Positions 13,998-35,635 of a stretch of DNA of 64,000 nt are shown here, piece by piece; positions within the stretch are counted from its first letter, which is position 1, and each line of letters opens with the position of its first letter. The DNA comes from Planctomycetota bacterium. Lineage in GTDB: Bacteria > Planctomycetota > Phycisphaerae > UBA1845. The stretch spans positions 27,504 to 91,503 of the forward strand of contig JAJRPG010000058.1 in the NCBI GenBank assembly GCA_024280855.1. The letters run 5' to 3'. Position numbers and translations under genes: made by a program. The notes beneath the pieces were generated by a model. It searched no databases and was not told where the DNA came from. It saw nothing but the letters and a program-made list of their open reading frames with translations.

Positions 13998-14022
13998 CTG
14001 CCCCCTTTATTTATGCGAAAAA

Positions 14023-14065
14023 TCCTTCCCCCACCCTTTGCCGGTAGGCAAACAATGGGGCACCC
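14023..14065 (+). repeat. hairpin repeat family A, copy 1
   Basis: tccttcccccaccctttgccggtaggcaaacaatggggcaccc. Outer stem CCCCA/TGGGG, inner stem TTTGCC/GGCAAA, loop GGTA. Confidence 0.8.
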
Positions 14066-14239
14066 GATACGCAAAACAAATTGATGTTTTGTTGGCGCCC
14101 GCGTCAGGCAATAGCCTGAAAATTATTAAGAATAAAGATGTCGTGTAGTGCGCGACTTACGTCGTGACGGCACCATGGGTGGGTGCGTTCGGCGATTGAA
14201 TGCTATAGGACAGTCGTGTGGGTACGAGTGAGGTTCGGT

Positions 14240-15226
14240 ATGAAAAAAATGTTAGCTTCCGATATGTCTAGTTCTGGACACGCAAGATTGCGTGGAGGGG
14301 TCGTCGCATTGCTTGTGGTGGCTATCACCAGCGCTCATTGGTGGACGCCTCAAGGGCAGGACTATCTTCACGCGATCCACATATCACTGCGGAAACTCTA
14401 TGTTGTCCCGGTCGTGCTAGCGGCGATTTGGTTCAACCTGCGTGCGGCTTTGCTGACTGCCGGAGCCGTGACGCTCCTTTATGCACCCCATGTGATCTGG
14501 CAATGGAGTGGTCAACGCGCAGAGAACATCAACCAAGTTGGTGAAATTGTCACTATCTGGGTGACCGCCGTAATCGCTGGAGTTTTTGTGGACGCAGAGA
14601 AAGGCGCGCTCCGAGGCCTTGCTGACGCATACGAAGGGGTTGTGATGGCGCTGGTTGCGGCTTTGGATATGCGTGAACACGATACAGAACTTCACTCGCT
14701 TCGGGTCCGAGCTTATACACTGAGGCTGGCAGATGAACTTAACGTTGAGCCTGAACAGCGTCGCATCTTTGCGCTTGGGGCTTTGTTGCATGATATAGGA
14801 AAGATCGGCGTACCCGATGCGATTCTTCTCAAGCGAGGCAGTTTGACGGATAGCGAATGGGAGTGCATCCGAAAGCACCCGGCGTTGGGACGAAAAATAC
14901 TCGAACCTGTTCGGTTTTTGGATGCAGCTAGAGAAATCGTATACGCCCATCACGAGAAGTTCGATGGCTCGGGTTACCCCCTGGGGCTATCCGAAATGAG
15001 CATACCGCGCGGTGCGCGGATATTTGCGGTAGCGGATGTGTTCGACGCACTGACGTCTGCCCGGCCATATAAAGACGCCATGACCTACGACGAGGCACGA
15101 CGAGAAATAGAAAACAGCAGGGTGTCACATTTTGACCCCGAAGTTGTTGATGCTTTCCTGCGTGTTGCCCCGAATGAATGGGACACGATACGCAACGAAA
15201 TAGAGAGCGAAGAAAGAGCTAGCTAG
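14240..15226 (+). CDS. HD-GYP domain protein with N-terminal membrane domain (c-di-GMP phosphodiesterase family)
   Basis: Contains HDIGKIGVPDAILLKRGSLT and HHEKFDGSGYPLGL. ATG 14240 is preceded by GAGG. Confidence 0.85.
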   Translation: MKKMLASDMSSSGHARLRGGVVALLVVAITSAHWWTPQGQDYLHAIHISLRKLYVVPVVLAAIWFNLRAALLTAGAVTLLYAPHVIWQWSGQRAENINQVGEIVTIWVTAVIAGVFVDAEKGALRGLADAYEGVVMALVAALDMREHDTELHSLRVRAYTLRLADELNVEPEQRRIFALGALLHDIGKIGVPDAILLKRGSLTDSEWECIRKHPALGRKILEPVRFLDAAREIVYAHHEKFDGSGYPLGLSEMSIPRGARIFAVADVFDALTSARPYKDAMTYDEARREIENSRVSHFDPEVVDAFLRVAPNEWDTIRNEIESEERAS

Positions 15227-15245
15227 CCTAGCCTACAATAATTAG

Positions 15246-15262
15246 GACACGGGTAAGTCCCG
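15246..15262 (+). repeat. short repeat E
   Basis: gacacgggtaagtcccg, 20 nt after the HD-GYP stop. Followed by two atgccaccc motifs (15294, 15314). Confidence 0.45.
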
Positions 15263-15351
15263 ATTCCAATTGGCATTGGAGTCTGGACGTACCCATGCCA
15301 CCCCGGAGGTGATCATGCCACCCGGATGGCACATTATATTTTGGATATGAA

Positions 15352-16032
15352 ATGACTAAGATACAAGCGGTTATTTTTGATATGGACGATACGCTCTTTC
15401 CTGAGCGGCAGTTTGCGTTTAGTGGGTTTTTAGCCGTGGCTGAGGCTTTTCAGTCGCAGCTTGGCGATGTGCTAACCGCAACGAGTAAGATGTGTGCGAT
15501 GTTTGATACGCCAGATCGCCGTCGGGTGTTTAATTCTATATTAGAGCATTGCGGGCAATCAGAGGATCAAGATACGATTGAGAAGATGGTGGCTACTTAT
15601 CGTGGTCATGTGCCTAAAATAAATTTGTTTGAAGATGCGAATCGTGCGCTGGATCGGCTGAAGGGGAAGTTTAAGTTGGGCGTGATTACGGATGGCCCAT
15701 TGACGATGCAGCAGGGGAAGGTTGAGGCGCTGGGGCTGCGCGACATGGTGGACGAAGTTATCTTGACGGCTGAGCTTGGCGAGGGGCTTGGTAAGCCGCA
15801 TCCGAAAGCGTTTGAGTTGATGGCTGAGCGTCTTGGGGTTGGGCATGAAGCCTGCGTTTATGTGGCTGATAATGCGTCGAAAGATTTTGTTGGCCCTAAT
15901 GGGTTAGGGTGGACGACGGTGCAGATTGTTCGCGCGGGCGGGATTTATGCAGAAGTTAAGACGGCTAAGGATGGGGCGGCTGGGCAGGTTATTGGTTCGC
16001 TCGATGAGTTTATGAAGGATGTTGAGGGGTAG
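15352..16032 (+). CDS. HAD-superfamily hydrolase
   Basis: 226 aa. Contains DMDDTLF (DxDxT), GVITDG, GKPHP and VADNASKD. Confidence 0.8.
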   Translation: MTKIQAVIFDMDDTLFPERQFAFSGFLAVAEAFQSQLGDVLTATSKMCAMFDTPDRRRVFNSILEHCGQSEDQDTIEKMVATYRGHVPKINLFEDANRALDRLKGKFKLGVITDGPLTMQQGKVEALGLRDMVDEVILTAELGEGLGKPHPKAFELMAERLGVGHEACVYVADNASKDFVGPNGLGWTTVQIVRAGGIYAEVKTAKDGAAGQVIGSLDEFMKDVEG

Positions 16033-16153
16033 GTTGTTGGTGAGTGGAGATTATTATTACGAGATTAAGTAATGCGTATCATCGACCCCCTTATGTCTAT
16101 GTCCAAACAGAAGGACATGGGCAATACGGCATATCTAGGAGGATGGCAGAATT

Positions 16154-16945
16154 ATGATAAATGAGATAGCAATCGATAGCTTTAACCAATTGCTAGTGTG
16201 GTCACGTAGATGCCGCGAAACTTTTGGAGAAATATGGTTCCGCGGTCATTCAGATAATACATGGAAGCTTGCCCCCTCCGTATTTAGGAAACATCTAGAT
16301 CACCAATATGAATTTAATCTAGCACAGAATTTTATGCTGCAATCACCCGCCCGGTGTTCGGATACTCCAAACCTGGGTCGTTATGATCTTTGGTTGTCGT
16401 TGATGCGTCATAGTGGTCTTCATACGCGATTATTGGATTGGTCAGAGTCGCTATTGGTCGCATGTTTTTTCGCTGTTGGCACAAGTAATATCGAACGTGA
16501 TGGCGGTATTTGGATGGTTTGTCCTACAATTCTTAATCAAAATACTGACAATACGAACGGCATACATATGCTGTATGCAATACGTGATAGTAAATGTGTA
16601 AAAAATGCTTTTGTGCGACGCGTTCAATCAGCCGACCAGATAGTCGCAGCGATTCCTACTGAAGTGTCAGTGCACATGATGATGCAGTCTTCACGGTTTA
16701 CAGTACACAACTCGCACAAACCACTTGAGGAATACTCCAGTGGTGAGCAGTTTCTCCAAAAGGCTGTAATTGCGCCGGAAGTGAAACAAGAAATTGCAGT
16801 ACACTTAGATATTATGGGAGTTAAGCTCTCGACTTTGTTTCCTACACTAGATGCTCTTGCTTTTGATTGCAATCAAGATGGGGATCGTGCAATGCTGGAT
16901 AAAGAAAAAATTGACGCTGAAGGCGGTAAAGGCCCCTTCAATTAA
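16154..16945 (+). CDS. FRG-domain protein
   Basis: 263 aa. IWFRGHSDNTWKLAPSVFR and HSGLHTRLLDWSESLLVACFFA match my memory of the FRG domain. AGGAGG RBS. AT-rich relative to its neighbours by eye. Confidence 0.6.
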   Translation: MINEIAIDSFNQLLVWSRRCRETFGEIWFRGHSDNTWKLAPSVFRKHLDHQYEFNLAQNFMLQSPARCSDTPNLGRYDLWLSLMRHSGLHTRLLDWSESLLVACFFAVGTSNIERDGGIWMVCPTILNQNTDNTNGIHMLYAIRDSKCVKNAFVRRVQSADQIVAAIPTEVSVHMMMQSSRFTVHNSHKPLEEYSSGEQFLQKAVIAPEVKQEIAVHLDIMGVKLSTLFPTLDALAFDCNQDGDRAMLDKEKIDAEGGKGPFN

Positions 16946-16980
16946 GGTGTCCTGACTCATTAGCCGTGCCTCCCTGGCTA

Positions 16981-17005
16981 GATTTCCGCCTGCGCGGGAA
17001 TGACA
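16981..17005 (+). repeat. family F short form
   Basis: gatttccgcctgcgcgggaatgaca. This is the outer arms of the 30374 copy without the inner hairpin. Confidence 0.55.
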
Positions 17006-17021
17006 GATGGTGGCGCTTTAT

Positions 17022-18236
17022 TTACTGCGCTACGTTTGTTTGTCTTACGCTAATAATGTGGTCGTTAGCCTGTCGCACGATGTCGATTGTGGCTTGGTCT
17101 ATGGGGGATTCTAGTTTTATTTGTGCGGTGGCTGAGTGCCCGCCTTTGCAGATTACGTTGTCCATTTCTTCTACGTTGATGTTGGCTTCGCTAATGACTC
17201 GTAATACGCTCGACAATACGCCTGGCTTGTTGAGGTGTCTTACGCGAAGGGAGCAGCCTCCTGTGCGTGGCCGGCGGAGGTTGACGCAGTTCAAGACGTT
17301 TCCGGTTTCACTGAATACGCGCACAATGCGCACGGCTTCGTCGGCTATGGCTTCCTGGGCTTGTTCGGTCGATGCGCCGATGTGGTGCGTGCCGTAGACG
17401 ACGCCGTCAGCTTTAATGATAGGGCACGAAAATTCGGCTTGGCCTGTGGTGGGTTCGTTGGGGTAAACGTCCAAGCCTACGCGCAGCCCTTGCTCTTTGA
17501 TAGCTGTAGCCACGGCTTCGTAGTCAACCACATCGGCCCGTGCGGTGTTGATGAGATAGCTGCCGGGCTTCATAGCTGACAAGACCTTGGCATTCACTAG
17601 CCCTTTGGTTTCTGGAGAGACGGCTATGTGTACGGACAACACGTCGCACTGCTTGGCTACGTCGATAGGGGATTCGGCTTGGGTGATGTTTAATTCCTGT
17701 GCTTGCTCAGGGGTTAGCGATCGACTCCACGCGACAACGGGCATACCAAAAGCTTGAGCGCGTCGAATCACGGCTAGGCCAATTTGACCTAAGCCGAGAA
17801 TGCCAAGGGTGCGACCTTTTAACCCGCGGGCCTGGCCATATTCTTTTTTGTTCCAAACGCCCGCGCGAAGGTCGATGACGTTATCAACGAGTCTGCGGTC
17901 GAGGGCGAGGATGAGTGCAAAGGTGAGTTCGGCTACAGCGACGGCGTTTTTGCCGGGGCAATTAGCTATCATGACGCTATGTTGAGAGGCGGCTTCGACG
18001 TCGATGGTGTTGTAGCCTGCGCCTGCTCGGACGATGAGGGCGAGGGAGTCGGCTGCGTCGATGACATCTTTGGGGACTTTGGTGCTGCGGACGATGAGGA
18101 CGGCGCACTGCGTTTTGATGACAGCGTCGCGCAGGGTGTCGCCTTGGAGGGTTGGGTCGATAGTGACTTCGCATCCCATGTCGCGGAGCGTGGCGAGTCC
18201 AGACGCTTGAAATTTGTCGGCTAATAGAACCTTCAT
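17022..18236 (-). CDS. serA: D-3-phosphoglycerate dehydrogenase with C-terminal ACT-like domain
   Basis: 404 aa. Contains GILGLGQIGLAVIRRA (NAD site) and the 2-hydroxyacid dehydrogenase catalytic region. Confidence 0.85.
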   Translation of the reverse strand: MKVLLADKFQASGLATLRDMGCEVTIDPTLQGDTLRDAVIKTQCAVLIVRSTKVPKDVIDAADSLALIVRAGAGYNTIDVEAASQHSVMIANCPGKNAVAVAELTFALILALDRRLVDNVIDLRAGVWNKKEYGQARGLKGRTLGILGLGQIGLAVIRRAQAFGMPVVAWSRSLTPEQAQELNITQAESPIDVAKQCDVLSVHIAVSPETKGLVNAKVLSAMKPGSYLINTARADVVDYEAVATAIKEQGLRVGLDVYPNEPTTGQAEFSCPIIKADGVVYGTHHIGASTEQAQEAIADEAVRIVRVFSETGNVLNCVNLRRPRTGGCSLRVRHLNKPGVLSSVLRVISEANINVEEMDNVICKGGHSATAQIKLESPIDQATIDIVRQANDHIISVRQTNVAQ

Positions 18237-18406
18237 GATTTACACCTGAGAATGTCGGTTTCTAAGTTCAATATCAAAAAAAAGCTACATTTTGCATACC
18301 AAAACTATTATAGTGACTCGACAGGGTGGAAGCGTCAACAGTAAAAGGTTATACAATGAGTGGTTTTTATTTTTTATTGGCCATCCCGACCGTAGAACTT
18401 TTGTGC

Positions 18407-18433
18407 GTCCGCGCGGGCTGAAGCCCGCGGCTC
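18407..18433 (-). repeat. hairpin repeat family C (inverted copy)
   Basis: The plus strand reads gtccgcgcgggctgaagcccgcggctc, followed by gttttt, 12 nt before the ATG at 18446. Confidence 0.75.
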
Positions 18434-18445
18434 GTTTTTGAAATT

Positions 18446-19690
18446 ATGAAGCGTTCATCTTGGACATCTATGCTTGGCCCGGGGATTCTTGTCGCAGCGA
18501 CGGGAATCGGCGCGGGCGATTTGCTGACGGCTAGCTTGGGCGGGTCGGTGGTTGGTTTGTCGATTTTGTGGGCGGCGGGTGTGGGGGCGTTGCTAAAATG
18601 GTTTCTCAACGAAGGCGTGGCTCGATGGCAGATGGCTACGGGGACCACGCTGCTGGAAGGGTGGGTTGATAAGCTTGGCCGATGGATTCGCTGGGTTTTT
18701 CTTACCTACCTTTTGTTGTGGTCATTGTTCACCGGCGGGGCGTTGTTGAATGCTTGCGGGGTCGCGGGGACTGGTATTTTTCCGATTACCAGCGATTTGA
18801 AAACGTCCAAAATTATCTGGGGGATTGTTCATTCGTTTGTGGGGTTGGGATTGGTGTTAGCCGGCGGGTTCAAGCTTTTTGAAAAGCTCATGGCTGTGTG
18901 CATTGGGTTTATGTGCGTGACCGTTATCTCGGCTGCCATTTTAGTTAAGCCGGACTGGTCGGCTGTGCTAGCTGGGATTTTTACGCCAACTTTGCCGGCG
19001 CATGATAAGACCTGGGTGCTTGGAATTCTCGGCGGTGTCGGTGGGACAGCTACGCTTTTATCTTATGGCTATTGGATAAGGGAGAAGGGACGAGCCGGGG
19101 TGGAAGGCATTCGCATGTGCCGTCTCGACTTAGCCTTTGGTTATACGATGACTGCGCTGTTTGGCATTTCGATGATTATCATTGGTTCGACGGTTTCGCT
19201 TTCGGGGAAGGGGCCTAGCGTGGCGATAACGTTGGCGGACAGGCTCGCGGAATCGATGGGGCCTATGGGGCGATGGGTTTTTCTTGTTGGATTTTGGGGT
19301 GCAGTTTTTTCGAGCCTGCTTGGCGTGTGGCAGAGTGTGCCGTATTTGTTTGCCGATTTTTTGTCGTTGCAAAAGCGTCGAGAAGCGAAGGCGGAAGTAG
19401 TTGAGGACTTGGCTACGACGACTGGCTATCGAGTGTACATGTTTGCCTTGGCTATTGTTCCTATCCCGCTGCTGTGGGGTTCGGTGGAGTGGGCGCAGAA
19501 ATCTTATGCGGTGTTGGGTTCACTATTTATGCCGCTGCTCGCGCTGACGTTATTGTTGATGAACAACCGCACGGCTTGGGTCGGTAGAGAGTTTCGTAAC
19601 GGTTGGCTGACGAATTTGGTGCTCGTTGCAACGCTGGTTTTCTTTGCCTATATCGCGGGTGATACTGTTTATGCGAAGTTGTTTTTGTAG
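18446..19690 (+). CDS. Nramp-fold (COG1914-like) transporter with non-canonical metal-site motifs
   Basis: 414 aa, about 11 TM helices. LGPGILVAATGIGAGDLLTAS aligns to the Nramp TM1 region LGPG...DPGN. Confidence 0.65.
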   Translation: MKRSSWTSMLGPGILVAATGIGAGDLLTASLGGSVVGLSILWAAGVGALLKWFLNEGVARWQMATGTTLLEGWVDKLGRWIRWVFLTYLLLWSLFTGGALLNACGVAGTGIFPITSDLKTSKIIWGIVHSFVGLGLVLAGGFKLFEKLMAVCIGFMCVTVISAAILVKPDWSAVLAGIFTPTLPAHDKTWVLGILGGVGGTATLLSYGYWIREKGRAGVEGIRMCRLDLAFGYTMTALFGISMIIIGSTVSLSGKGPSVAITLADRLAESMGPMGRWVFLVGFWGAVFSSLLGVWQSVPYLFADFLSLQKRREAKAEVVEDLATTTGYRVYMFALAIVPIPLLWGSVEWAQKSYAVLGSLFMPLLALTLLLMNNRTAWVGREFRNGWLTNLVLVATLVFFAYIAGDTVYAKLFL

Positions 19691-19816
19691 GGCGGGTCGT
19701 GGGCCTGCCTGAACTATTTCGCTGCGAATTATAGGTGATTGCGATGATTGGTGTTCGAGTTGAACATGAAGTCTTATTTGTTGGCGGAGGTGGATTGAGT
19801 GTCGATGGTTGAGGCA

Positions 19817-19850
19817 GGTCAACCTTTCGCTAGTAAGCGAAAGAACGACC
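19817..19850 (+). repeat. hairpin repeat family A, divergent copy
   Basis: ggtcaacctttcgctagtaagcgaaagaacgacc. Outer stem GGTC/GACC, inner stem CTTTCGCT/AGCGAAAG, loop AGTA, with the same AC/AA internal loop position. Confidence 0.6.
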
Positions 19851-20019
19851 GTGCCCTACCGTGGACCGTACTCTACGTTGTTGGCGAAAGCTTTTACGCG
19901 AAGCTGTTTTGAGCGAGGCAGAAGCTGCTGTGATTGTCAGCGGTGGAAAAATTGTTGATAATGCAAGAGATTGGCTAATGGCGGAACTATAGACTCAGAG
20001 GAATATCGGAGAGAATGGC

Positions 20020-21147
20020 ATGATTTATCTTGACTACAACGCATCAACCCCTGTGGCCCCGGCTGTGCGCGAGGCGATGTGGCCATTTCTCGGCGAATTT
20101 TTTGGTAACGCTTCCAGCGATCATCCTCTAGGCCGAAAAGTCAGTGAAGCTGTGGCGAACGCCCGCAAGCAAGTGGCGGGTTTGCTTGGGGCTAAGCCTG
20201 AGGAAATTCTTTTTACGTCCGGTGGAACGGAATCTAACAATTATGTGATTAAGGGCGTGGCTCGAAAGTTAAGTGATCGTGGTAAGCACATCATTACGTC
20301 GTCTATCGAACATCCGGCTGTTGTTAATCCATGTAAATCGCTTGAAAGCGAAGGCTTTGAAACGACCTATGTGCCCGTTGATAAGTACGGTTTGATCGAT
20401 GTTCAGGAAGTCATTAACGCCGTGCAGCCTGACACGATTCTCATTTCGATTATGCACGCCAATAATGAGGTTGGCACGATTCAGCCTATCTCGGAAATTT
20501 CTGAGATTGCGCGGGAAGGTGGCATATGGATGCACACGGACTCGGCTCAGACTTGCGGGAAGCTTTCGACGGATGTTAATGAACTCGGTGTAGATTTTTT
20601 GTCTATCGCAGGCCATAAGGTCTATGCGCCGCAGGGGATCGGTGCTTTGTATATTCGAGAAGGTATTAACCTTGAGCCTTTGCATCATGGAGCCGGGCAT
20701 GAGAGTGGTCGTCGCGCGGGTACGGAAGCTGTCCCGGCTATTGTCGGGTTGGGAAAGGCGGCAGAGTTAGCGAAGGCTCATGTGGGTGACACGTCAACGG
20801 CAATGTTGCGGGATCGACTTTGGGAGGGGATTAGTCAGCAGCTTGGTGATGACGCTGTGTTGCTGGGGCATCCCACGAAGCGGCTGCCTAATACGTTAGC
20901 CGTTGGGTTTCGAAATAGGATAGGCGCAGATATTTTATTGGCCTGTCCAGAATTATGTGCCAGCACCGGGGCTGCTTGTCACGCGGCTCATCGAAAGCGT
21001 TCTGAGGTATTAGCTCAGATGAATGTGCCTGAAGATGTTGCGTTTGGTGCTGTGCGATTTAGCCTGGGGCATCCAACGACGCAGGAAGAAATCGACCAGG
21101 CTATTGAGATTATTACGAAGGCTGTGAGTCAGTGTCCGGTCGCGTAA
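20020..21147 (+). CDS. cysteine desulfurase (NifS/IscS-like class V aminotransferase)
   Basis: 375 aa. Contains SGGTESNN, HTDSAQ and SIAGHKVYAPQGIGALYIR (PLP lysine). Confidence 0.85.
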   Translation: MIYLDYNASTPVAPAVREAMWPFLGEFFGNASSDHPLGRKVSEAVANARKQVAGLLGAKPEEILFTSGGTESNNYVIKGVARKLSDRGKHIITSSIEHPAVVNPCKSLESEGFETTYVPVDKYGLIDVQEVINAVQPDTILISIMHANNEVGTIQPISEISEIAREGGIWMHTDSAQTCGKLSTDVNELGVDFLSIAGHKVYAPQGIGALYIREGINLEPLHHGAGHESGRRAGTEAVPAIVGLGKAAELAKAHVGDTSTAMLRDRLWEGISQQLGDDAVLLGHPTKRLPNTLAVGFRNRIGADILLACPELCASTGAACHAAHRKRSEVLAQMNVPEDVAFGAVRFSLGHPTTQEEIDQAIEIITKAVSQCPVA

Positions 21148-21184
21148 TGGCCAATTTACAATTTTTTGTTGCAGAAATGATATC

Positions 21185-22327: not shown

Positions 22328-22366
22328 GCGATACGTCTGTTGTTCCGGACTGTTTTTTTTCGGCGC

Positions 22367-22409
22367 GGGTGCCCCATTGTTTGCCTACTGGCAAAGGGTG
22401 GGGGACGGA
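22367..22409 (-). repeat. hairpin repeat family A, copy 2 (inverted)
   Basis: The reverse complement reads tccgtcccccaccctttgccagtaggcaaacaatggggcaccc. Confidence 0.8.
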
Positions 22410-22506
22410 TTGAATTAATGAGAAGTAGAGAAAGCCATGCCGGATCATCAATCGTCTACAGCTATTGGTCATCTACAAAAAGTTTGAAGGTTGATTGAAC
22501 ATCTAG

Positions 22507-22549
22507 TCCTTCCCCCACCCTTCGGGAGTACCCGAAGAATGGGGCACCC
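22507..22549 (+). repeat. hairpin repeat family A, copy 3
   Basis: tccttcccccacccttcgggagtacccgaagaatggggcaccc. Inner stem CTTCGGG/CCCGAAG, loop AGTA. Confidence 0.85.
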
Positions 22550-22554
22550 GAATG

Positions 22555-22598
22555 AAAAAAGCGCCGTGGCCTCTCAATAATCAGAGAAGCCACGACGC
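22555..22598 (-). terminator. intrinsic terminator of the lipoprotein gene
   Basis: 15-bp stem with 2 mismatches (gcgccgtggcctctc...gagaagccacgacgc, 22561-22598). On the minus strand it is followed by TTTTTT (22555-22560), about 40 nt after the stop. Confidence 0.7.
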
Positions 22599-22636
22599 TG
22601 TAATCGTAAAAGCTATGTCTTATCTATCCTGGAGTG

Positions 22637-23242
22637 TTACTGAATCCGACGACCCAGGAAGTTGATGCTCAGGTTTTGGTTGCCTTCTGGAATGTCTAGC
22701 AGAGTGACTGTCGAGACGAAGTCAAATGTGCCTGTCATTACATCAGAATCGTTTGCGTCAAAAGTTCCTGTAGCGGTGGCGGTGGCGGTGGCTGCTTCCA
22801 GGCCAACGGCAAAAACGGAGATGTCCGCAGCCAGGGTGAAACCTGTGGCGTCAGATGTTTGTGCGCCAAATGTAGCTGCGGCATATTGTAAGCCGGCTTG
22901 TGCGGTATCATGTCGCGCGCCATCGAAAAGGATGGTGCTCCCGAAAATTTCTGCACCTAGTGTGTTGTCGTTGAATTCTGATAATTCGCCGTTTGGACCG
23001 AAAGTGACAACCACAAATGGGACGCCTTGGCCATTGACTGATGTGGTGTAAAATTCCCATGTGCTGTCAGCCAAGGAGATGACACCGCTGCCAAGAGTAG
23101 CTGTGGTTTCAGTGCCATCGGGTAGCAATACCGTGACTTCTTCGGCTAGGCCATTGTTAGCTGGCCCGCCACAACCATTGGCGACAACAATGGTTAAACC
23201 CATAACGCCTACAACCAGCGTGCGAAACATTCTATGCGACAT
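22637..23242 (-). CDS. hypothetical lipoprotein
   Basis: 201 aa. Signal peptide with lipobox-like Cys (MSHRMFRTLVVGVMGLTIVVANGC). No recognisable domain. Confidence 0.5.
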   Translation of the reverse strand: MSHRMFRTLVVGVMGLTIVVANGCGGPANNGLAEEVTVLLPDGTETTATLGSGVISLADSTWEFYTTSVNGQGVPFVVVTFGPNGELSEFNDNTLGAEIFGSTILFDGARHDTAQAGLQYAAATFGAQTSDATGFTLAADISVFAVGLEAATATATATGTFDANDSDVMTGTFDFVSTVTLLDIPEGNQNLSINFLGRRIQ

Positions 23243-23456
23243 AACTTTTGACTCCCTGTAAACCCTTGCGAATATAATTTGTCTTCCTCAACGTTAATGT
23301 TCTCTTAACCATCGGAAAATGTGCGCACGAATTTACTTGTTTCCTCGTTTGTTTATAGACCGAAATGTCTTTTTGCATACATGGACCTTTCGCAAAGTGA
23401 CAGGAGATTGTCACTTTTAGGTGGAAGCCCTGCGCCGATAAATCGTGAAAAACACG

Positions 23457-24960: not shown

Positions 24961-25002
24961 CCGTCCCCCATTTTTCGGGAGTACCCGAAGAATGGCGCAT
25001 CC
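24961..25002 (+). repeat. hairpin repeat family A, degenerate copy 4
   Basis: ccgtcccccatttttcgggagtacccgaagaatggcgcatcc. Confidence 0.7.
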
Positions 25003-26660: not shown

Positions 26661-26676
26661 CATTCTTTCGTAGTTC

Positions 26677-27924
26677 TCAAACCACCGCCTCAATCAGATC
26701 GCAAGTTGTTTCTAGTGGTTTGGCTTGATGTAATAGTTTAGCGTATTGATGACATTTGTTTGACACTTCTTTGTTCTCTAATAGTCCAGCAAGTTTCTTG
26801 GCTATCGCTTGAGCGCGAAAGTGTTTGGGTAGAATGGTGTCAGCTATGCCCATACGTTTAAGTCTGTAGGCGTTGTCGGGTTGGTCCCAGGCGAGGGGCA
26901 TGATTAGTTGTGGGATGCGGGCGACCATAGCCTGGGATAATGTGCCGATGCCGCCGTGGTGAACGATGGCTGAGCATCGCGGTAATAATTGGCTGAAGGG
27001 CACATATTTGAAATGGCGCACCGTTTCGGGCAATTGATCGGGAACCTGATCTTCAAACCGTGTCAGCAAAATGCCTCGTCGGCCTAGCGTTTGGCAGGCT
27101 TTTACTGCTTCAGCGAAAAAGCTTCGGGCGTGCATCATGCCGCTACCGGGAGTAAAAGCGATGGGTGCGTCTGTGCCGGCTAGGAATGATTCGATGTGCG
27201 GTTCGAGTTTCTGGTCTTGATTGTGTTCATCGAAGAGGGGGAACCCGGCGTGGCGGAGATGTTGGGGCCAATCTGGTTGTTGGGGTGCGTACCAATCGGG
27301 AAATAACGCGATGATGCGCTGCGGCGATAGCCACCATTCGTGCATCATGCGGTTGATGGGTGGTAGATTGAAAGTGGCTCGATAAGCGTTTATTTTTTTC
27401 ACGATGAAGATGCGATCGAGAAAAACGTCGAGGCTTCGCAAGATTGCGCGATTCACGAATGGTGGAACCCAGCTGGGGATGGGCGGCGCTCCCGCGACGA
27501 CGGGCATGGCGTAGGCGCTGCGCAGGATGGCTGGTTGTAATACGATTGTCACCAGGGGGATGTTGTGGGTTTCGTGGGCGATGCGGGCGCCGAGCGTTGC
27601 ACCGGAGGCGATGATGACGGTGTTCCCCGGTTTGTGTCGTTCGATGATGGCTTCGTATTGCGTGGGCATGGAGCGGGCCATCCATCTGCCTAGCGATCGC
27701 GCACCGGGGATTCCTTTCCAGATGTCGGGGTTAGCCATCTCGTCAAAAAATTCTTTTTCGGTGCCGATGGGGGTAAAATCAAAGCCGTGCTTTTCTGCGT
27801 GACGGGCGAAATGGGCATTGGTCATGAGTGTGACGTGATGGCCTTTGGCGCGGAGCATGATGCCAATGGCGACGAATGGGTGGACGTCGCCTTCGGTGCC
27901 GTGTGTCACAAGAATACAGTTCAC
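26677..27924 (-). CDS. GT1-family glycosyltransferase, RhlB-like
   Basis: 415 aa with a GTG start. Contains GDVHPF, LGARIAHE, LFPDWYAPQQPDWPQHLRHAGFPLFD and HHGGIGT. Confidence 0.75.
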   Translation of the reverse strand: MNCILVTHGTEGDVHPFVAIGIMLRAKGHHVTLMTNAHFARHAEKHGFDFTPIGTEKEFFDEMANPDIWKGIPGARSLGRWMARSMPTQYEAIIERHKPGNTVIIASGATLGARIAHETHNIPLVTIVLQPAILRSAYAMPVVAGAPPIPSWVPPFVNRAILRSLDVFLDRIFIVKKINAYRATFNLPPINRMMHEWWLSPQRIIALFPDWYAPQQPDWPQHLRHAGFPLFDEHNQDQKLEPHIESFLAGTDAPIAFTPGSGMMHARSFFAEAVKACQTLGRRGILLTRFEDQVPDQLPETVRHFKYVPFSQLLPRCSAIVHHGGIGTLSQAMVARIPQLIMPLAWDQPDNAYRLKRMGIADTILPKHFRAQAIAKKLAGLLENKEVSNKCHQYAKLLHQAKPLETTCDLIEAVV

Positions 27925-28056
27925 GCGAGTTCCTCATAGAGGCTTATGGCTTCGCGGGTTGATTGTGTTCGCACCATCTAGCCACGAGATTATTAGCGTA
28001 ACAAAGTAATCACGACGCGCCTACATTGGTAATTGGGTGACGTGTTATTGACTGTC

Positions 28057-28095
28057 CGTGCCCACCCTTCGGGAGTACCTGAAGAATGGGGGAGC
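28057..28095 (+). repeat. hairpin repeat family A, copy 5
   Basis: cgtgcccacccttcgggagtacctgaagaatgggggagc. The inner stem has one G:T(U) wobble. Confidence 0.75.
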
Positions 28096-28096
28096 C

Positions 28097-28134
28097 ATGC
28101 CATCAGAGCCGTACGGCGCAAGCCTGCGGACATG
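28097..28134 (+). repeat. hairpin repeat family B (GCAA loop), copy 1
   Basis: atgccatcagagccgtacggcgcaagcctgcggacatg. Abuts family A copy 5. Confidence 0.75.
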
Positions 28135-28170
28135 TCTTGTGCCTGTTGGCGTGTAAAATAGTTTATTCAC

Positions 28171-28261
28171 GCGCCAGGTGCGGGAATAGGAATGCCACCA
28201 GGCTCGCGCCAGGTGCTCTGGTAAAAATGCCACCAGGCTCGCGCCGGGTGCTCTGATGGCG
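28171..28261. repeat. 35-bp tandem repeat, about 2.5 units (family D)
   Basis: gcgccaggtgc occurs at 28171, 28206 and 28241. atgccaccaggctc occurs at 28192 and 28227. Each unit can form CACCAGGC-tcgc-GCCAGGTG. Confidence 0.8.
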
Positions 28262-28334
28262 TTAGTCCGCTTCCTCACGGGCGCGGTTCTGGTTTGTGGC
28301 TTATCAGGCGCAATTTTGTTATGATTCGCCACTG

Positions 28335-29549: not shown

Positions 29550-29565
29550 GCCGGTCTCATCGAAC

Positions 29566-30240
29566 ATGACTAATCGCTCATACATCATGCACAAATTATA
29601 CGCTGGCGGAGTCAGGCTGTATCAGCGGTTGTTCATTGAAACGAAAATTTGGGGGCGAGATAAAATTCCGCCCGGTCCAAAAATTTATGCGGTGAATCAT
29701 ATCAGTTCGCATGACGGATTTTGGCTTGCGCCGTTGTTTACCGAGCCGGTGCATTACATCATTGGGCCTGGTTATCAGTCGTGGCTTGGGACGAAATTTC
29801 TTGATGCGATGGAGTCGATAAACGCTTTTGTTCCAGACGCCAGGGATATGGTCGACCAGGCAGCGGACTATCTGAATAAAGGTGAGCCTGTGGTCATTGC
29901 GCCGGAAGGTGATATTCAGGAGACGTTTTCGCTGGGTCGGTTTATGCCGGGGGTCGCGCGAATTTATATGGCGTCCGGGGTTCCAATTGTTCCGATTGCG
30001 ATGCTTACGCCGCGACGAAATTTGAGAGAAAATGTTAAGAAGCGGCAGGTGATTGATGGCCATGTGTTTCGGATGGTTAATTTATTGCGCGGCCCTTTTT
30101 GTTTTAATATCGGTGAGGCCTGGTCGCCTGGTTATGAAGGATTGAGCGAGGCTAAGCAGGTGGTGCGCATTACGCGCGAATTGCGCGAGCGGATGGAGTC
30201 GCTGGTGGAAGATATGCGTATTAATAAGTTCTGGATGTAA
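29566..30240 (+). CDS. PlsC-family (lysophospholipid-type) acyltransferase
   Basis: 224 aa. HX4D motif NHISSHD, and IAPEG. Confidence 0.75.
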   Translation: MTNRSYIMHKLYAGGVRLYQRLFIETKIWGRDKIPPGPKIYAVNHISSHDGFWLAPLFTEPVHYIIGPGYQSWLGTKFLDAMESINAFVPDARDMVDQAADYLNKGEPVVIAPEGDIQETFSLGRFMPGVARIYMASGVPIVPIAMLTPRRNLRENVKKRQVIDGHVFRMVNLLRGPFCFNIGEAWSPGYEGLSEAKQVVRITRELRERMESLVEDMRINKFWM

Positions 30241-30373
30241 TTTTTATCTAATTGTTGAAAAGGTGCTGATTAGAGCATGTGGTGAGGTGTTGTGTGTTTT
30301 CTGGTTGCTTATCTAGTTGGCATTGTTGACACCTTGATAGTGGCAAGGACACTACGCGACGTGTGGTGTCACT

Positions 30374-30411
30374 GGATTCCCGCTCCCGATGTACTTCGGG
30401 ACGGGAATGAC
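30374..30411 (+). repeat. hairpin repeat family F (GGATTCCCGC...CGGGAATGAC type)
   Basis: ggattcccgctcccgatgtacttcgggacgggaatgac. Nested stems around an ATGTACTT loop. Confidence 0.7.
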
Positions 30412-30460
30412 GGGTTGGCGCGGGGATGGCGTGCGTTAATCGCGGCGGAGTGTTTCTGAT

Positions 30461-33400
30461 ATGAAGCCTAAAGAAAGCGGCGGGATTATTGGCGCGATCG
30501 TGCGCAACCCGGTGATGGCTAATCTTATCGCCATTGGCATCCTCGTCGGTGGGGTGGTAGCTGCGCGTCAGCTACCACGAGAAACATTTCCCGATACTAA
30601 CGTCGATCATATTCTGATTACGGTTCCCTACTTAGGTGCTACGCCTGAAGACATTGAGCAGAGTATTTGCATCAAGATTGAGCAGGCGATTCAGGGTGTG
30701 CCCGGTATTTGGGAACTGACTTCGATTTCACGAGAAAATGTAGGGCTTGTGGTCGCGGCGGTGGATACGGATATTTCGCCCACGGCTGATGTGTTGCAGC
30801 AGATTCGTAATAAGGTTGATGCGATTACTACGTTCCCGCCCGATGCCGAAAGGCCGGTGGCGATTGAAGTAGTGATTCGAAGTGTGGTCATCAACATTGG
30901 CATTAGCGGTGATGTGCCTGAGCATACTTTTAAGCACATTGCTCAGCAGATTCATGACGACTTAGTGGCGAATCCCAACATCTCGCAGGTTAGTATCGCT
31001 GGTGTGCGCGATTATGAAGTAGCTATCAAACTTTCTGAGGAAGGGCTGCAGCGGTATGGGCTGACGTTTCAACATGTGATTGAAGCTATCAAGGCTAGTA
31101 GTTTGGATTTGCCTGCTGGTACGGTGCGCACGCAACAAGAAGAGATTAATGTGCGCACGCTTGGCCAGCGATATAACGCTGCTGATTTTTCAGACTTGGT
31201 CGTTATCGCGAAGTCTGATGGCGCGGTAGTGAGATTAGGGCAAATAGCACAGGTACATGACTCGTTTGAGGATGTGCCTCTTTATGGAAGGGTTGACGGG
31301 CAAGCTGGTGCGATGATTACGGTTTCCAAGACGGGGCCTGAAGACATCAGCGAGATTGCTGAGATTGTGCGAAATTATGTCGCCTCTGCGCAGCGCGATT
31401 TGCCAGATGGTATTCACCTAACGACGTGGGCTGATGCGTCGCGCGATGTTGATGGCCGCTTGAAGATGCTTCTTAAAAATGGCATGACGGGCATGGTGCT
31501 TGTGGTGTTTGCGCTGCTTTTGTTTATGGACTTGCGGTCCACGATTGCGGTGGCGCTGGGGATTCCTGTGGCGTTCGCCGGTGCGGTTGCGGTGTTGGGT
31601 GTGACGGATAGTACCATCAATATGATTAGCCTGTTGGGGCTATTGATGGCGACGGGGATTGTGGTGGATGATGCGATTGTAATTGCTGAGGCTGTGCGCA
31701 AACAGTCTCGCGATGGTCTTGCACCTTTAGATGCTGCGGTGGCAGGGACTCGGCGGGTGGCTTTGCCTGTGCTATTGTCTTCGCTGACGACTATTGTGGC
31801 GTTTATTCCGATCATGTTTGTTAAAGGCGTGATGGGAAAGTTTATTTATGTGTTGCCGGTCGTTGTGATTGCGACGATTGTTGCTTCGGCGATTGAAGCG
31901 TTCGCCATTTTGCCGGCTCACTTAGCTGAGTGGGTGAGCGAGAATAAAGCTGACAAAAAGAATTGGCGAACTCGAACGCGGGCTAAGCTGGACCAATTTA
32001 TTGAAATGGTTGTCACGAAGTATTACCGTCCGGTCGTGCGGTGGTCGTTGGCCCATCGGGGTTTGGTCTTGGCTACGGTTGGTGCGTGTGTGCTAATATC
32101 CGTTGGGTTGGTGTTGGGTGGCCGCACGCCGTTTGTGCTGTTTCCCAAGGTGAATGGTAATACGCTCAAGGCGCGGGTTAAATTTCCAGAGGGTACGCCG
32201 ATTGCGACGACAGAAGCTGCGGTGCTTCGATTGGAAACGGCTGCTCGAATGCTAAATAGTGATCCGTTATTAACGACGGGTAAGCCTGGGCCTTTGGTTC
32301 AGCATATTTATTCGGCAGTTGGTGAATGGGCGGAGTTTGTGCCCGACCGAGGCAGCGCTTACGGCGAGACTTATATTGAATTGATGGCTGCGGAAGATCG
32401 TGATATTGACCTGGCGGTTGTGATAGAAAGATGGCGGGAAGCCGTGGGGGAGATTCACGATACGGAAATTTTTACGATCACGCGACAAGCGCTAGGCCCT
32501 ACAGAAAAACCGTTGGAGATTCGGCTGCTTGGTGACGACTTGCCACAATTACGACAGGCTGCGGATGCTGTGGAGGCTAAGTTAGCTTCGTATGAAGGGG
32601 TGTTTGATATTTCTGACGACCTTAATCCGGGTAAGCGTGAGCTTCAGGTTCGTCTTAAACCTAACGCGGGCAACTTGGGGCTTACGGTGGCGGAGGTCGC
32701 TGGGCAGTTGCGGCAAGGTTTGTTGGGGGCGGACGCGGTTCATTTGCAACGGGGTAAGGATGAGGTTGATGTTGTCGTTAGTTATGGCGTGGACGATAGT
32801 CGTAGCATTGGTGCGATAGAGAAGATGCGTCTGCGGACTAGCGGGGGTGTCGAGATTCCTTTTAGCGAAGTACTTGATACGAAGATGGTGCGTGGTTATT
32901 CGTCCATTGGTCGGCAAGATGGCCGACGTCGGATTCGCATTCAAGCTGATGTAGACGAACGCCACGCCAATGCAGAACAAATTGTACAGACTATAGCCAA
33001 GACGTTTTTACCAGACATCACACGAAAATTTCCTGGCGTTACGTTTCTCATCGATGGACAGCGAGCGCGGATTGAAGAGTCGATGGGTAGTTTATTGTAC
33101 GGCATGATTATCGCGATTGCGGTGATGTATGCACTGCTGGGTTTGCCTTTGCGGTCTTACATTCAGCCGTTGATTATTTTGGCAGCGGTTCCGCTGGGCG
33201 TGGTCGGCGCGATCGTTGGGCATCTGGTCATGGGTGCGGACATTACTTTGATGAGTGTGTTTGGTATGGTGGCACTAGCTGGGATTGTGGTCAACGATTC
33301 GTTGGTTTTACTTGATCGCATTAACGGTAATATATCAGAGGGTGTCGGGGTGCGCGACGCGGTAGCGCGGGCAGGAGAGGAACGATTCCGAGCTGTGGTG

Positions 33401-33664
33401 CTGACGTCGCTGACGACTGTGGTGGGTCTATTGCCATTGCTTTTTGAAACCAGCTCGCAGGCTCAAGCGCTTATTCCCTTGACGATTTCAATGGTGTTTG
33501 GGCTGATGTTTGCGACTGTTCTTACGCTCATTGTTGTACCTGTCATGTTTATCGCGGCGAATGATCTAAAACGATTGGCTCATTGGTTAAGGCGAGGCGG
33601 GGCGTTGCCTTCGCCGGAACGTGTTGAACAAGCAGCCCAGGAGGCCGTCGGCGCTGTGGCGTAG
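30461..33664 (+). CDS. RND efflux transporter permease (AcrB family)
   Basis: 1067 aa, 12-TM architecture with two large periplasmic loops. Confidence 0.9.
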   Translation: MKPKESGGIIGAIVRNPVMANLIAIGILVGGVVAARQLPRETFPDTNVDHILITVPYLGATPEDIEQSICIKIEQAIQGVPGIWELTSISRENVGLVVAAVDTDISPTADVLQQIRNKVDAITTFPPDAERPVAIEVVIRSVVINIGISGDVPEHTFKHIAQQIHDDLVANPNISQVSIAGVRDYEVAIKLSEEGLQRYGLTFQHVIEAIKASSLDLPAGTVRTQQEEINVRTLGQRYNAADFSDLVVIAKSDGAVVRLGQIAQVHDSFEDVPLYGRVDGQAGAMITVSKTGPEDISEIAEIVRNYVASAQRDLPDGIHLTTWADASRDVDGRLKMLLKNGMTGMVLVVFALLLFMDLRSTIAVALGIPVAFAGAVAVLGVTDSTINMISLLGLLMATGIVVDDAIVIAEAVRKQSRDGLAPLDAAVAGTRRVALPVLLSSLTTIVAFIPIMFVKGVMGKFIYVLPVVVIATIVASAIEAFAILPAHLAEWVSENKADKKNWRTRTRAKLDQFIEMVVTKYYRPVVRWSLAHRGLVLATVGACVLISVGLVLGGRTPFVLFPKVNGNTLKARVKFPEGTPIATTEAAVLRLETAARMLNSDPLLTTGKPGPLVQHIYSAVGEWAEFVPDRGSAYGETYIELMAAEDRDIDLAVVIERWREAVGEIHDTEIFTITRQALGPTEKPLEIRLLGDDLPQLRQAADAVEAKLASYEGVFDISDDLNPGKRELQVRLKPNAGNLGLTVAEVAGQLRQGLLGADAVHLQRGKDEVDVVVSYGVDDSRSIGAIEKMRLRTSGGVEIPFSEVLDTKMVRGYSSIGRQDGRRRIRIQADVDERHANAEQIVQTIAKTFLPDITRKFPGVTFLIDGQRARIEESMGSLLYGMIIAIAVMYALLGLPLRSYIQPLIILAAVPLGVVGAIVGHLVMGADITLMSVFGMVALAGIVVNDSLVLLDRINGNISEGVGVRDAVARAGEERFRAVVLTSLTTVVGLLPLLFETSSQAQALIPLTISMVFGLMFATVLTLIVVPVMFIAANDLKRLAHWLRRGGALPSPERVEQAAQEAVGAVA

Positions 33665-33700
33665 ATAGCTGATGAATGAATGAGATTGTCAGGAGGCGAT

Positions 33701-35311
33701 ATGAATAGCCGAAATGATTTTTGTATCGAAAAAAGTGTGCGTTGTCATGTAAAACTCTTCGGCCTACGTGCTGGTTCGGTTTTCGTGTGTGGGCTGATAT
33801 TATTTTCTGGTTGCCGTGTACCGCTCACGAAGTTGGAGTCAATCGTTCAACGTCATCGTGAAGCGATGGCTGAGTTGCCGCCCGAAGATTCTATTCGCAT
33901 TGATGCTTATGGTACGCCGGTACCTATGGATTACGCCAAGCGTATGTTGCCGGAAGGTGAGCTGACGATTGAAGATGCGCGAGGCATAGCTGTGCGGGCC
34001 AATCCTGACATTCACACGGTGCAAGCTCGTTTGGAGGCTGCGGCTGCGAGAATTGAGGAAGCGCGGGCACAGTTTTTTCCACAGATATTTTTTGCTCATA
34101 ACACCACGCGCGTTTTTCAAAGGCCCTCCAATGGCTTAAGTTTTGAATCGTTGATCTCACCCAACGCGGTGGCGACGCCCGCACCACAGGGTACAAACTT
34201 TCTCACCGAAACGTTACGAAATTTGGTTTTGGGTAGTGATGTGAATAAGCCAAATCGTAGCGCATTCAGCGAACATACAACAGGTTTGTCGCTTAGTTGG
34301 ACGGTTTTTGATGGCTATATTCGAGATGCGCAGTTGCGCGCGGCTAAGTATGTTCATCGGGCATCAGCGATGGCGCTGGCAGACATGCAGCGGATTGTCG
34401 TGCAAGCGGTGGATACAGCCTACTTTAGAGTTCAGTTAGCTGAGGAGCAGTTGCGCATTTCTAAGGCTGACGAAACATTTAGTCAGGAGCAGCTTCAGGA
34501 GACGCAGAAACTCGAAACGGCTGGTCGGGCAACCTTGTCTGATGTCAACAACTTTCGTGTGCGTATGTTAGTCGCCAAGGCTAACGTGACGGCTGCGATG
34601 GGTAATCGTGAAATTGGCCGGGTCGCGCTCGCGGAGCTGATGGGATTAGATGGCGTGGATTTGCCTGTAGCGTTAGAACTTTCGCCGTTACAAACGGAAA
34701 CGCCTGAGGCGATGGCTAAGCCTTTGGTTTCGCAATGTATTCAGGATGCATTGACGAACCGGCCTGACACTGCACAGTTAAAGCATTTGGTTCATAGCCG
34801 GGAGGCGCAGGTTCGGGCTGCGAAAGGGTTGGCTTACCCGCTGGTAGCTGCTACGGGTTCGTGGGGATTTAACGACAACACGAATATCCGTTACAGCAAT
34901 GAAGACCAGACCTCGGCTGCGATTATCGCTGTTCGTTGGGCACTTTATACGGGTGGGGCTATTGAAGCGCGCGTGCGAGAGACTGAAGCTCAATTAGATG
35001 AAGCCGAAGCGCGAGAGAGGCGTATAGTGCTTGCGGTTCAATCAGAGGTTAAGCAGGCGGTGATTGCGCTGACGGATGCGCAGGCGCAAATCGTACTGCG
35101 CCGCGAGGCTTTGGAAACATCTTTCGAAAACAGGCGCATTGTGCAAGCGGCGTATTTAGGTGGGAAGCAGCCTTTGACAAGACTCAATGAGACGCAGCGG
35201 GATTATATTGCTGCGGATGCGAACCTGGCTCGGGCGCGAATTCGCCTTCGTCAGGCGTGGAGTGAGCTGGATGCGGCGACGGCTACTCAAATAATTAGCG
35301 AAGAGAATTAG
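33701..35311 (+). CDS. TolC-like outer membrane efflux protein
   Basis: ORF starts at 33680. ATG 33701 is preceded by AGGAGG. Duplicated OEP repeats with coiled coils. Confidence 0.8.
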   Translation: MNSRNDFCIEKSVRCHVKLFGLRAGSVFVCGLILFSGCRVPLTKLESIVQRHREAMAELPPEDSIRIDAYGTPVPMDYAKRMLPEGELTIEDARGIAVRANPDIHTVQARLEAAAARIEEARAQFFPQIFFAHNTTRVFQRPSNGLSFESLISPNAVATPAPQGTNFLTETLRNLVLGSDVNKPNRSAFSEHTTGLSLSWTVFDGYIRDAQLRAAKYVHRASAMALADMQRIVVQAVDTAYFRVQLAEEQLRISKADETFSQEQLQETQKLETAGRATLSDVNNFRVRMLVAKANVTAAMGNREIGRVALAELMGLDGVDLPVALELSPLQTETPEAMAKPLVSQCIQDALTNRPDTAQLKHLVHSREAQVRAAKGLAYPLVAATGSWGFNDNTNIRYSNEDQTSAAIIAVRWALYTGGAIEARVRETEAQLDEAEARERRIVLAVQSEVKQAVIALTDAQAQIVLRREALETSFENRRIVQAAYLGGKQPLTRLNETQRDYIAADANLARARIRLRQAWSELDAATATQIISEEN

Positions 35312-35442
35312 AATTTTGTTCGTGACGATTAGCATGTTGAGAATCTGGAATGGGCACTATGATTGTTAGTACGTTTGTAACGATCAAAAGACCGCTGATA
35401 TTACATAAAGAATAACTTAACCCTCGCCACACGAATGCTTGG

Positions 35443-35480
35443 ATGCCGTCAGAGCCGCACGGCGCAAGCCTGCGGACATG
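35443..35480 (+). repeat. hairpin repeat family B, copy 2
   Basis: atgccgtcagagccgcacggcgcaagcctgcggacatg. Structure is CCGCA-c-GGC-GCAA-GCC-TGCGG. Confidence 0.75.
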
Positions 35481-35562
35481 CTTACATGAACCGTGAGCCA
35501 CGACGATGTTTCTGGACAGCCACCAAGCTTGTGTGTGTGCTTATCAGATGGCATCAGTAAAA

Positions 35563-35592
35563 CGTGCCCGCAGGCTTGCGCCTCTGATGGCG
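35563..35592 (-). repeat. hairpin repeat family B, truncated inverted copy
   Basis: The plus strand reads cgtgcccgcaggcttgcgcctctgatggcg, which is the reverse complement of gccatcagaggcgcaagcctgcgggcacg. Confidence 0.65.
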
Positions 35593-35635
35593 TCCTTCCC
35601 CCACCCTTCGGGAGTACCCGAAGAATGGGGCATCC
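35593..35635 (+). repeat. hairpin repeat family A, copy 6
   Basis: tccttcccccacccttcgggagtacccgaagaatggggcatcc. Confidence 0.85.

Follow-up and report, generated by a model that had tools for sequence, protein, structure and literature searches.

Six copies of a hairpin of about 43 nt lie in the 64,000-nucleotide stretch of DNA analysed here (the window: positions 27,504 to 91,503 of contig JAJRPG010000058.1, from a bacterium of the Planctomycetota). They form one family of small mobile palindromic repeats, and they are probably elements of the REP type (repetitive extragenic palindrome) belonging to a Phycisphaerae lineage, of the same kind as known REPs and bacterial interspersed mosaic elements (BIMEs). 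The hairpins represent a new instance of an already known type of element, and the interpretation of the family as a new regulatory RNA is not favoured. An earlier note on this DNA had listed seven hairpins and had argued that the constraint on them amounts to more than an ordinary REP would show; this last claim is not supported, given that the copies occur in inverted doublets, form mosaic clusters with a second REP family (called G2 below), are polymorphic for presence and absence, have mixed orientations and lie distal to terminators.

Membership in the family was evaluated using a covariance model built from 49 copies taken from the window and from six related metagenome-assembled genomes (MAGs). 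When the window is scanned with the filters off, this model finds exactly six members, with scores of 49 to 74 bits, and the remaining matches are at noise level. The architecture pattern CCCCA-N9-RGTA-N9-TGGGG, with at most one mismatch allowed, has 6 matches in the 64 kb compared to 0.04 expected from shuffled sequences. All seven of the hairpins listed earlier are present, with stems, loops and the G:T wobble of the 28057 copy reading as described, and the inner stems are indeed CTTCGGG/CCCGAAG in four copies (A-type) and (C)TTTGCC/GGCAAA in two (B-type). The seventh, at 19817, is matched by the model in its inner hairpin only (13.7 bits, E = 0.11) and is not a member. The six members are distributed over five sites:

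14023-14065, plus strand: singleton REP-like hairpin with the B-type inner stem CTTTGCC GGTA GGCAAAC; 65.3 bits.
22367-22549, no single strand: inverted heterotypic doublet consisting of a B-type copy at 22367-22409 (minus), a 97-nt spacer and an A-type copy at 22507-22549 (plus).
24961-25002, plus strand: singleton A-type copy in a divergent intergenic region; 55.3 bits.
28057-28095, plus strand: degenerate A-type copy in a divergent intergenic region; 49.1 bits; repeat families D2, D15 and I2.
35593-35635, plus strand: singleton A-type copy; 72.4 bits; open reading frames (ORFs) and repeat I21.

The hairpin has two tiers, and the strand which folds best reads 5'-(C)GGGTG-CCCCA-TT-(7-bp inner stem)-TACT-(complement)-GG-TGGGG-GA(C/A)GGA. 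The 2x2 internal loop CC/AA which had been described between the tiers exists on the strand considered in the earlier note, but on the complementary strand it is replaced by two G.T(U) wobbles which complete a continuous 14-bp helix; the architecture described there is strand-dependent, because the CC/AA positions become G.U wobbles when the complementary strand is folded. For the 22507 copy, the folding energy is -27.5 kcal/mol on the complementary strand compared to -21.0 on the strand first described. The AGTA loop is conserved as claimed within the clade of the window but not across the family, in which CGTA and GGTA also occur: the loop is NGTA in most copies, and TTGG, TGAT, CGAA or TGCG in the rest. 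The flanks (TCCGTCCCCCACC...AATGGGGCACCC) are very constant around the variable inner stem, and the element ends in TCCGTC or TCCTTC on one strand and in (C)GGGTG on the other. The unpaired 5' tag on the strand first described is CGTC in 33, CTTC in 17 and CATC in 5 of 58 copies, and the GT[AG]G tag is absent from the family. The junction between the tiers carries C.A in 48-56 of the 58 copies, a count which is largely produced by construction, 44 of the 58 having been found with a pattern that fixes those junction bases, and among stem mismatches G.T on the GGGTG strand outnumbers the reverse kind by 9 to 3.

Individual copies in the window depart from this plan to different degrees. The two halves of the doublet score 69.7 and 74.3 bits, with their GGGTGCCCC ends facing outward and their TCCGTCC/TCCTTCC ends facing inward. 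The 24961 copy has a closed junction (TT/AA) and a single mismatch in its outer stem. The 28057 copy, which carries the G.T wobble, has a damaged outer stem, and another hairpin repeat module (28097-28134) lies right behind it. The 35593 copy lies 12 nt past the stop codon of a minus-strand gene (35647-37473) and is directly preceded by a hairpin module at 35559-35592 (minus). The description of all copies as intergenic holds, in that none overlaps a gene with a Pfam domain and three are overlapped solely by unsupported ORFs of 88-106 amino acids (aa).

The claim that pairing rather than sequence is under constraint is borne out by the 49-copy alignment, which covers the window and the six related MAGs. 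Standard pairs make up 97.1% of its pair cells, 6 of the 7 inner-stem pairs show double-sided changes, the observed covariation score is reached by none of 500 shuffles, and pairing falls to about 55% if the partners are slid by one column. Since the search pattern fixed the outer stem, covariation there is uninformative either way. The family contains about ten distinct, fully paired inner stems, among them CTTCGGG/CCCGAAG, CTTTGCC/GGCAAAG, CTTCGCC/GGCGAAG, CTCTTCG/CGAAGAG and CTTTTCG/CGAAAAG as well as CTACGGG/CCCGTAG, CTTTTCC/GGAAAAG, CTTTGGG/CCCAAAG and CATCCGC/GTGGATG. This variety represents several independent compensatory events, and not a single split inherited by many copies. The covariation shows that the hairpin is what gets recognised or retained, and among the options raised earlier a recognition hairpin in single-stranded DNA (ssDNA) fits best. 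Covariation of this kind is to be expected of REP elements, because families with stem sub-types, heterodimers and no transposase of their own have already been described.

The distribution of the family was determined from a species-level scan (one genome per species) with the pattern TCCCCCACC-N18-AATGGGGCA, in which the 18 inner bases are free. The scan produced 53 loci, of which 42 lie in six MAGs of the Planctomycetota/Phycisphaerae (OFTM182, OFTM243, OFTM250, Dive96_bin2.90, Dive96_bin1.127 and B3T1B8); the free bases form a hairpin in all 42. The other 11 loci come from unrelated taxa, form no hairpin and are as numerous as expected by chance. Exact-pattern copies are few and variable in number (1-16 per MAG), metagenomes from JGI add a few further copies on contigs, and viral contigs contain no match to the pattern, so that nothing points to a phage origin. 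The covariance model has 65 matches in 296 kb of related loci, none of them within a gene that has a Pfam domain. The related DNA sampled here comes to about 0.6 Mb and represents part of each genome, and the genome of the window itself was seen as the 64-kb window only. The window is syntenic with contigs of Dive96_bin2.90 and Dive96_bin1.127 at 66-78% nucleotide identity; its TyrA shares 91% identity with the OFTM182 protein and 80% with the Dive96_bin2.90 protein, and the genome is therefore placed in the Phycisphaerae, close to OFTM182.

Copies of the family in the related loci are often arranged as inverted pairs with the GGGTGCCCC ends outward. There are 16 such doublets, including the one in the window (22367/22507). 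Their spacers measure about 16-97 nt, and every doublet is heterotypic, combining an A-type copy with a copy that has a different stem. In Dive96_bin2.90 an entire doublet of about 150 nt, including its 47-nt spacer, is found at eight sites and in both orientations. The ends of the doublets are perfect inverted repeats of 11-12 nt. When folded as a single strand of DNA or RNA, the doublets adopt a four-way junction composed of a terminal helix, the A hairpin, an inner helix and the B hairpin, with z-scores of -5.9 to -9, and the window doublet folds likewise. No target-site duplication was found at the ends of the five doublets inspected, which agrees with insertion of the HUH type, since this would leave no duplication. 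Single copies of about 45 nt exist beside the doublets.

Comparison with close relatives points to gain and loss over short distances. The covariance model finds one copy only in the 21-kb loci of OFTM182 and Dive96_bin2.90 that are syntenic with the window. Alignment reveals the window doublet to be a single insert of about 205 nt relative to OFTM182, with TyrA on one side and the convergent gene's terminator on the other, and the syntenic locus of Dive96_bin2.90 (L057) contains no family copy according to the model, which is evidence that the doublet is absent there as well. At the orthologous site neither OFTM182 nor Dive96_bin2.90 has the 24961 copy, which stands out in both alignments as about 47 inserted nucleotides. 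At the site of the 14023 copy, a B-type copy occupies the same gene gap in OFTM182 (L055 1466-1521, degenerate, 38 bits) and in Dive96_bin2.90 (L041 6650-6694). The surroundings of this copy (13606-15226) constitute a variable islet that encodes a 115-aa ORF with no Pfam match and a gene with an HD domain (HD_5); Dive96_bin2.90 (L041) has neither of them between the corresponding orthologous neighbours, and in OFTM182 (L055) other small ORFs are found at this place.

The 19817 hairpin was rejected as a member of the family because its other strand reads as a GTAG-tagged REP of the sister family G2, and it has a short inverted partner:

19813-19859, minus strand: GTAG-tagged REP of sister family G2, reading GTAG GGCACGGTC GTT CTTTCGCT TACT AGCGAAAG GTT GACCTGCC.
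19687-19709, plus strand: short GTAG REP (GTAGGGCGGGTCGTGGGCCTGCC), the inverted partner of 19813-19859, with the GTAG ends outward.

The 19813-19859 element is identical in OFTM182, and the short partner at 19687 is likewise conserved there. The covariance model gives G2 copies about 11-14 bits. The G2 family resembles the A/B family, when both are read on the strand with the G.T junction, in having an unpaired purine-rich tag, an outer stem, a G.T junction (GTT/GTT compared to TT/GG) and an inner stem of the form CTTYSSS (CTTTCGCC in G2, CTTTGCC or CTTCGGG in A/B), and the two have the TACT loop in common in the window clade. G2 differs in its outer stem (GGCAGGTC/GACCTGCC), in its GTAG tag and in flanking genes for the REP-associated tyrosine transposase (RAYT). 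At least 12 G2 copies are present in the loci of Dive96_bin2.90, in which a G2 REP lies no more than a few hundred nt from about half of the A/B sites, a proportion that is our reading and not a computed statistic; the background of G2, in loci not chosen for REPs (L057), is about one copy per 20 kb.

RAYT homologues are widespread in the Phycisphaerae, and although there is no RAYT gene within the 64-kb window, such genes are present in the relatives Dive96_bin2.90 (two), Dive96_bin1.127 and GCA_024275565.1. G2 copies lie on both sides of the RAYT gene at locus L079 (Dive96_bin2.90) and at locus L080 (GCA_024275565.1), an arrangement which is a classical REPtron. At L080 (4783-4890), the RAYT stop is immediately followed by two tandem truncated G2 heads (GTAGGGCAGGTCGTYCTTTCGCAAAT) and then by a complete G2 REP; the truncated heads may have been left behind by cleavage and rejoining that took place repeatedly at the REPtron. 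The RAYT at locus L005 matches E. coli RayT with E = 2.7e-37 and is flanked by the REP GTAGGGCGGGCAyTGCCCGCC, which, when searched for in the window and all loci, is confined to the surroundings of that gene, and the RAYT at L077 is flanked by a GTAG REP of its own (GTAGGTCGGGCAcTGCCCGAC). The closest approach of the A/B family to a RAYT locus is a weak variant at L079 3641-3687 (13.6 bits, E = 0.048). A phmmer search with E. coli RayT against all ORFs of the roughly 0.6 Mb recovered only the RAYTs already described, none of them beside the A/B family; a second query, an IS200 TnpA sequence, had no match and constitutes a weak test. An all-against-all BLASTP comparison of the ORFs in 42 loci (about 0.36 Mb) yielded no recurrent transposase, only housekeeping genes and spurious ORFs that span the repeats. 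In L024, the 690 bp separating the two doublets were considered as a RAYT candidate and rejected, since they encode a 170-aa membrane-like protein.

Stem-sequence sub-types and inverted heterodimers are textbook features of REPs and BIMEs, as in the Y, Z1 and Z2 types of E. coli (PMC3733652; PMC6006769). The A/B family shares with the REP, REPIN and BIME systems served by RAYTs (Y, Z1 and Z2 of E. coli, and the REPINs of Pseudomonas) its short, imperfect, extragenic and multicopy palindromes, inverted pairs, heterodimers of stem sub-types, mosaic clusters, lack of target-site duplication, insertion polymorphism and the presence of RAYTs in the lineage; it differs from them in having no 5' GT[AG]G tag, in flanking none of the four RAYT genes, in its two-tier stem with a G.T-wobble junction and in its host phylum, the Planctomycetota (Phycisphaerae). 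REP families without a dedicated transposase are also known, namely the CGTC-tagged REPs, which have the tag variants TGTC and CCTC, a stem of 8-9 bp starting with A:T, a loop of 4-5 nt and a CCA tail (PMC3733652). The A/B family resembles these in its 4-nt loop, its short, C-rich, unpaired tail, its head-to-head dimers with the tagged ends facing each other, the commonness of heterodimers and, in the DNA sampled, the lack of a dedicated transposase; the resemblance is partial at its 5' end, which on the strand first described is (TC)CGTC in 33 of 58 copies. However, its stem comprises 5 + 7 bp, separated by a 2-nt junction, and its first four pairs are C:G, unlike the published stem of 8-9 bp from A:T, its tail is CACCC and not CCA, and its other tags are CTTC and CATC where the published ones are TGTC and CCTC. 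The Planctomycetota are not among the phyla listed for the CGTC repeats (PMC3733652), and no published description of the A/B family was found.

The gene context of the copies bears on the alternative that the hairpins act mainly in cis as RNA, for example as 3'-end stabilisers, terminators or processing sites, and that their repeat-like spread is secondary. The context was derived from crude ORF-based calls, with 18 sites in high-GC loci remaining ambiguous, and the 28 sites with unambiguous neighbours consist of 11 convergent, 13 tandem and 4 divergent gaps. This enrichment behind gene 3' ends favours an RNA role, as do the covarying pairing, the retention of the 14023 copy in three genomes, and the precedent of E. 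coli, in which REPs stabilise upstream mRNA. It is also favoured by convergent gaps, in which, on our reading, 6 of 7 singletons offer their continuous-helix (G.U) form to the transcript of the nearer gene; over all gaps, however, the orientation relative to the nearer transcript is mixed (about 10 compared to 6, with no convincing bias), and in tandem gaps it is 4 compared to 5. No T-run follows the hairpin of either strand, so that the copies do not qualify as intrinsic (Rho-independent) terminators. The window doublet lies past the terminators of both convergent genes, between hairpins with T-runs at 22335-22350 (plus) and 22560-22599 (minus; a 16-bp stem conserved in OFTM182), each of which is nearer to its own gene (TyrA and a 201-aa ORF, respectively), and a terminator-like hairpin also precedes the 14023 copy. 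Because canonical sites of this type end TyrA and the 201-aa ORF, the window lineage appears to use ordinary intrinsic terminators. Two window copies lie in divergent promoter regions, the corresponding genes of close relatives have no such elements beside them, and the Rfam search that had been proposed identified no matching family (Rfam 15: no match at the gathering score in the window, and none over the doublet even at E <= 1). Taken together, these observations make a mainly RNA-based role distinctly unlikely.

Two further alternatives concern the elements as DNA. They could be kept as double-stranded or cruciform sites for a chromosomal protein and not for mobility, a role suggested by the constant flanks around a variable stem, by the four-way-junction geometry of the doublets and by the precedent of BIMEs, which are bound by gyrase or IHF. 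The low and variable copy numbers (1-16 exact-pattern copies per MAG) and the absence of copies from the same sites in close relatives, however, render this very unlikely. Alternatively, the doublet of about 150 nt could be a miniature inverted-repeat transposable element (MITE) of a DDE transposon with the terminal inverted repeats GGGTGCCCCAT...ATGGGGCACCC, the singletons being its decayed halves. The perfect terminal repeats of 11-12 nt, the multicopy occurrence of the entire unit in Dive96_bin2.90 and the insertion of the window doublet as one piece are all consistent with such an element, but the five doublets inspected have no target-site duplication, the 24961 singleton forms a clean insert by itself (about 47 nt), no recurrent transposase ORF occurs near the elements in about 0.36 Mb, and each half is a covarying hairpin, which the terminal inverted repeats of a MITE do not need to be. 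A MITE is accordingly highly improbable.

Several observations also weigh against the REP interpretation itself. The 14023 copy is retained in a gene gap of three genomes and is 93% identical to its counterpart in Dive96_bin2.90, compared to 72-78% for the flanking genes; such retention is not predicted by pure selfish turnover. The small ORFs beside the copies at this site have no homology between the window and OFTM182, and strict positional orthology of the 14023 copy is for this reason unproven. Mobility is deduced from presence as opposed to absence in the aligned sequences, a pattern which precise deletion in both relatives could also have produced. The GT[AG]G tag, which is the defining mark of RAYT substrates, is missing from the family, and a RAYT or other transposase gene flanked by A/B copies was not found: the RAYT loci L005, L077, L079 and L080 carry other GTAG REPs. 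A search for RAYT genes and the possibility of a known REP mobilised by a resident RAYT had both been raised in the earlier note; the elements are REP-like and RAYTs do exist in the relatives, but none of the four loci has the A/B family at its flanks, and no cognate RAYT was found in the roughly 0.6 Mb sampled.

With the family read as REP elements, a mechanism can be outlined. The usual mobile unit would be the inverted doublet of A-type and B-type stems, comparable to an E. coli BIME or to a REPIN, and copies would be inserted into and lost from intergenic DNA over short evolutionary times, with a preference for sites past gene 3' ends and terminators and often beside GTAG REPs. The covariation of the stems suggests that propagation or retention is limited to copies which keep the hairpin, while stem sub-types coexist. 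Propagation may proceed via an enzyme of the HUH/Y1 type that recognises hairpins in ssDNA, and the likeliest candidate is a resident RAYT acting in trans on a substrate without GTAG, because the A/B family shares the architecture of G2 and clusters with it. The mixed doublet is perhaps favoured because it avoids a long perfect palindrome, and any effect on mRNA ends would be secondary. A more specific proposal, that the A/B doublet is an "orphan" REPIN which has departed from the GTAG rule and is copied in trans by the RAYT of G2, is speculative and has an outside chance of being correct. If it is, then the heterotypy of 16 out of 16 doublets and the four-way junction would be required for this reaction, or for some function that the junction has in the host, and the family would provide a natural case from which to learn what a RAYT reads in its substrate and could explain the persistence of the CGTC REPs.

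What the family contributes is a set of REPs in the Phycisphaerae which have neither a GTAG tag nor a flanking RAYT and which exist beside a classical system of RAYT and GTAG REPs with a similar architecture, together with clear filled and empty sites between close relatives and a strict rule of two stem types per doublet. The pair of families, G2 with a RAYT and A/B with none, constitutes a usable comparison for the study of substrate recognition by RAYTs. For annotation, hairpins of this type in planctomycete MAGs should not be called regulatory RNAs, and they probably add to contig breaks.

Further repeats were noticed in the window and in related loci. A third hairpin repeat, ATGCCATCAGAGCCGYACGGCGCAAGCCTGCGGACATG, with an inner GGC-GCAA-GCC hairpin, is found in the window at 28097-28134 (plus), 35443-35480 (plus) and 35559-35592 (minus); it abuts two of the REP-like copies, occurs also in the flanks of the second RAYT at L079 and beside doublets in L016, L024 and L042, and looks like another module of the same mosaic. 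A fourth, GAGCCGCGGGCTTCAGCCCGCGCGGA, is found at 3188-3225, 11205-11239 and 18398-18436 (minus); a T-run follows the copy at 18412-18429, which has a terminator-like score, and a variant whose stem is changed yet paired (GAGCCGCGTGGCTTTAGCCCACGCGG) adjoins the doublet of L046. Dive96_bin2.90 contains a further hairpin repeat, CATCGACTCCCCCAGGTCC-AAAAAGAA-GGACCTGGGACAC, at L042 4505-4552 and 4730-4775 and at L079 3560-3590, interleaved with doublets and G2 REPs. Near the 28057 copy, in the divergent gap upstream of a GT4 gene, two tandem units of 35 nt (CGCGCCAGGTGC...ATGCCACCAGGCT) which are 80% identical occupy 28170-28239. Elsewhere in the window, a large ORF at 40042-43257 (plus) contains six repeats with a period of 156-180 nt (40394-41305) and six repeats of about 36 nt (41548-42939) that encode motifs like D-C-N-D-N-G-V-P-D-E-C-E, and its product is probably a repeat-rich secreted or surface protein.

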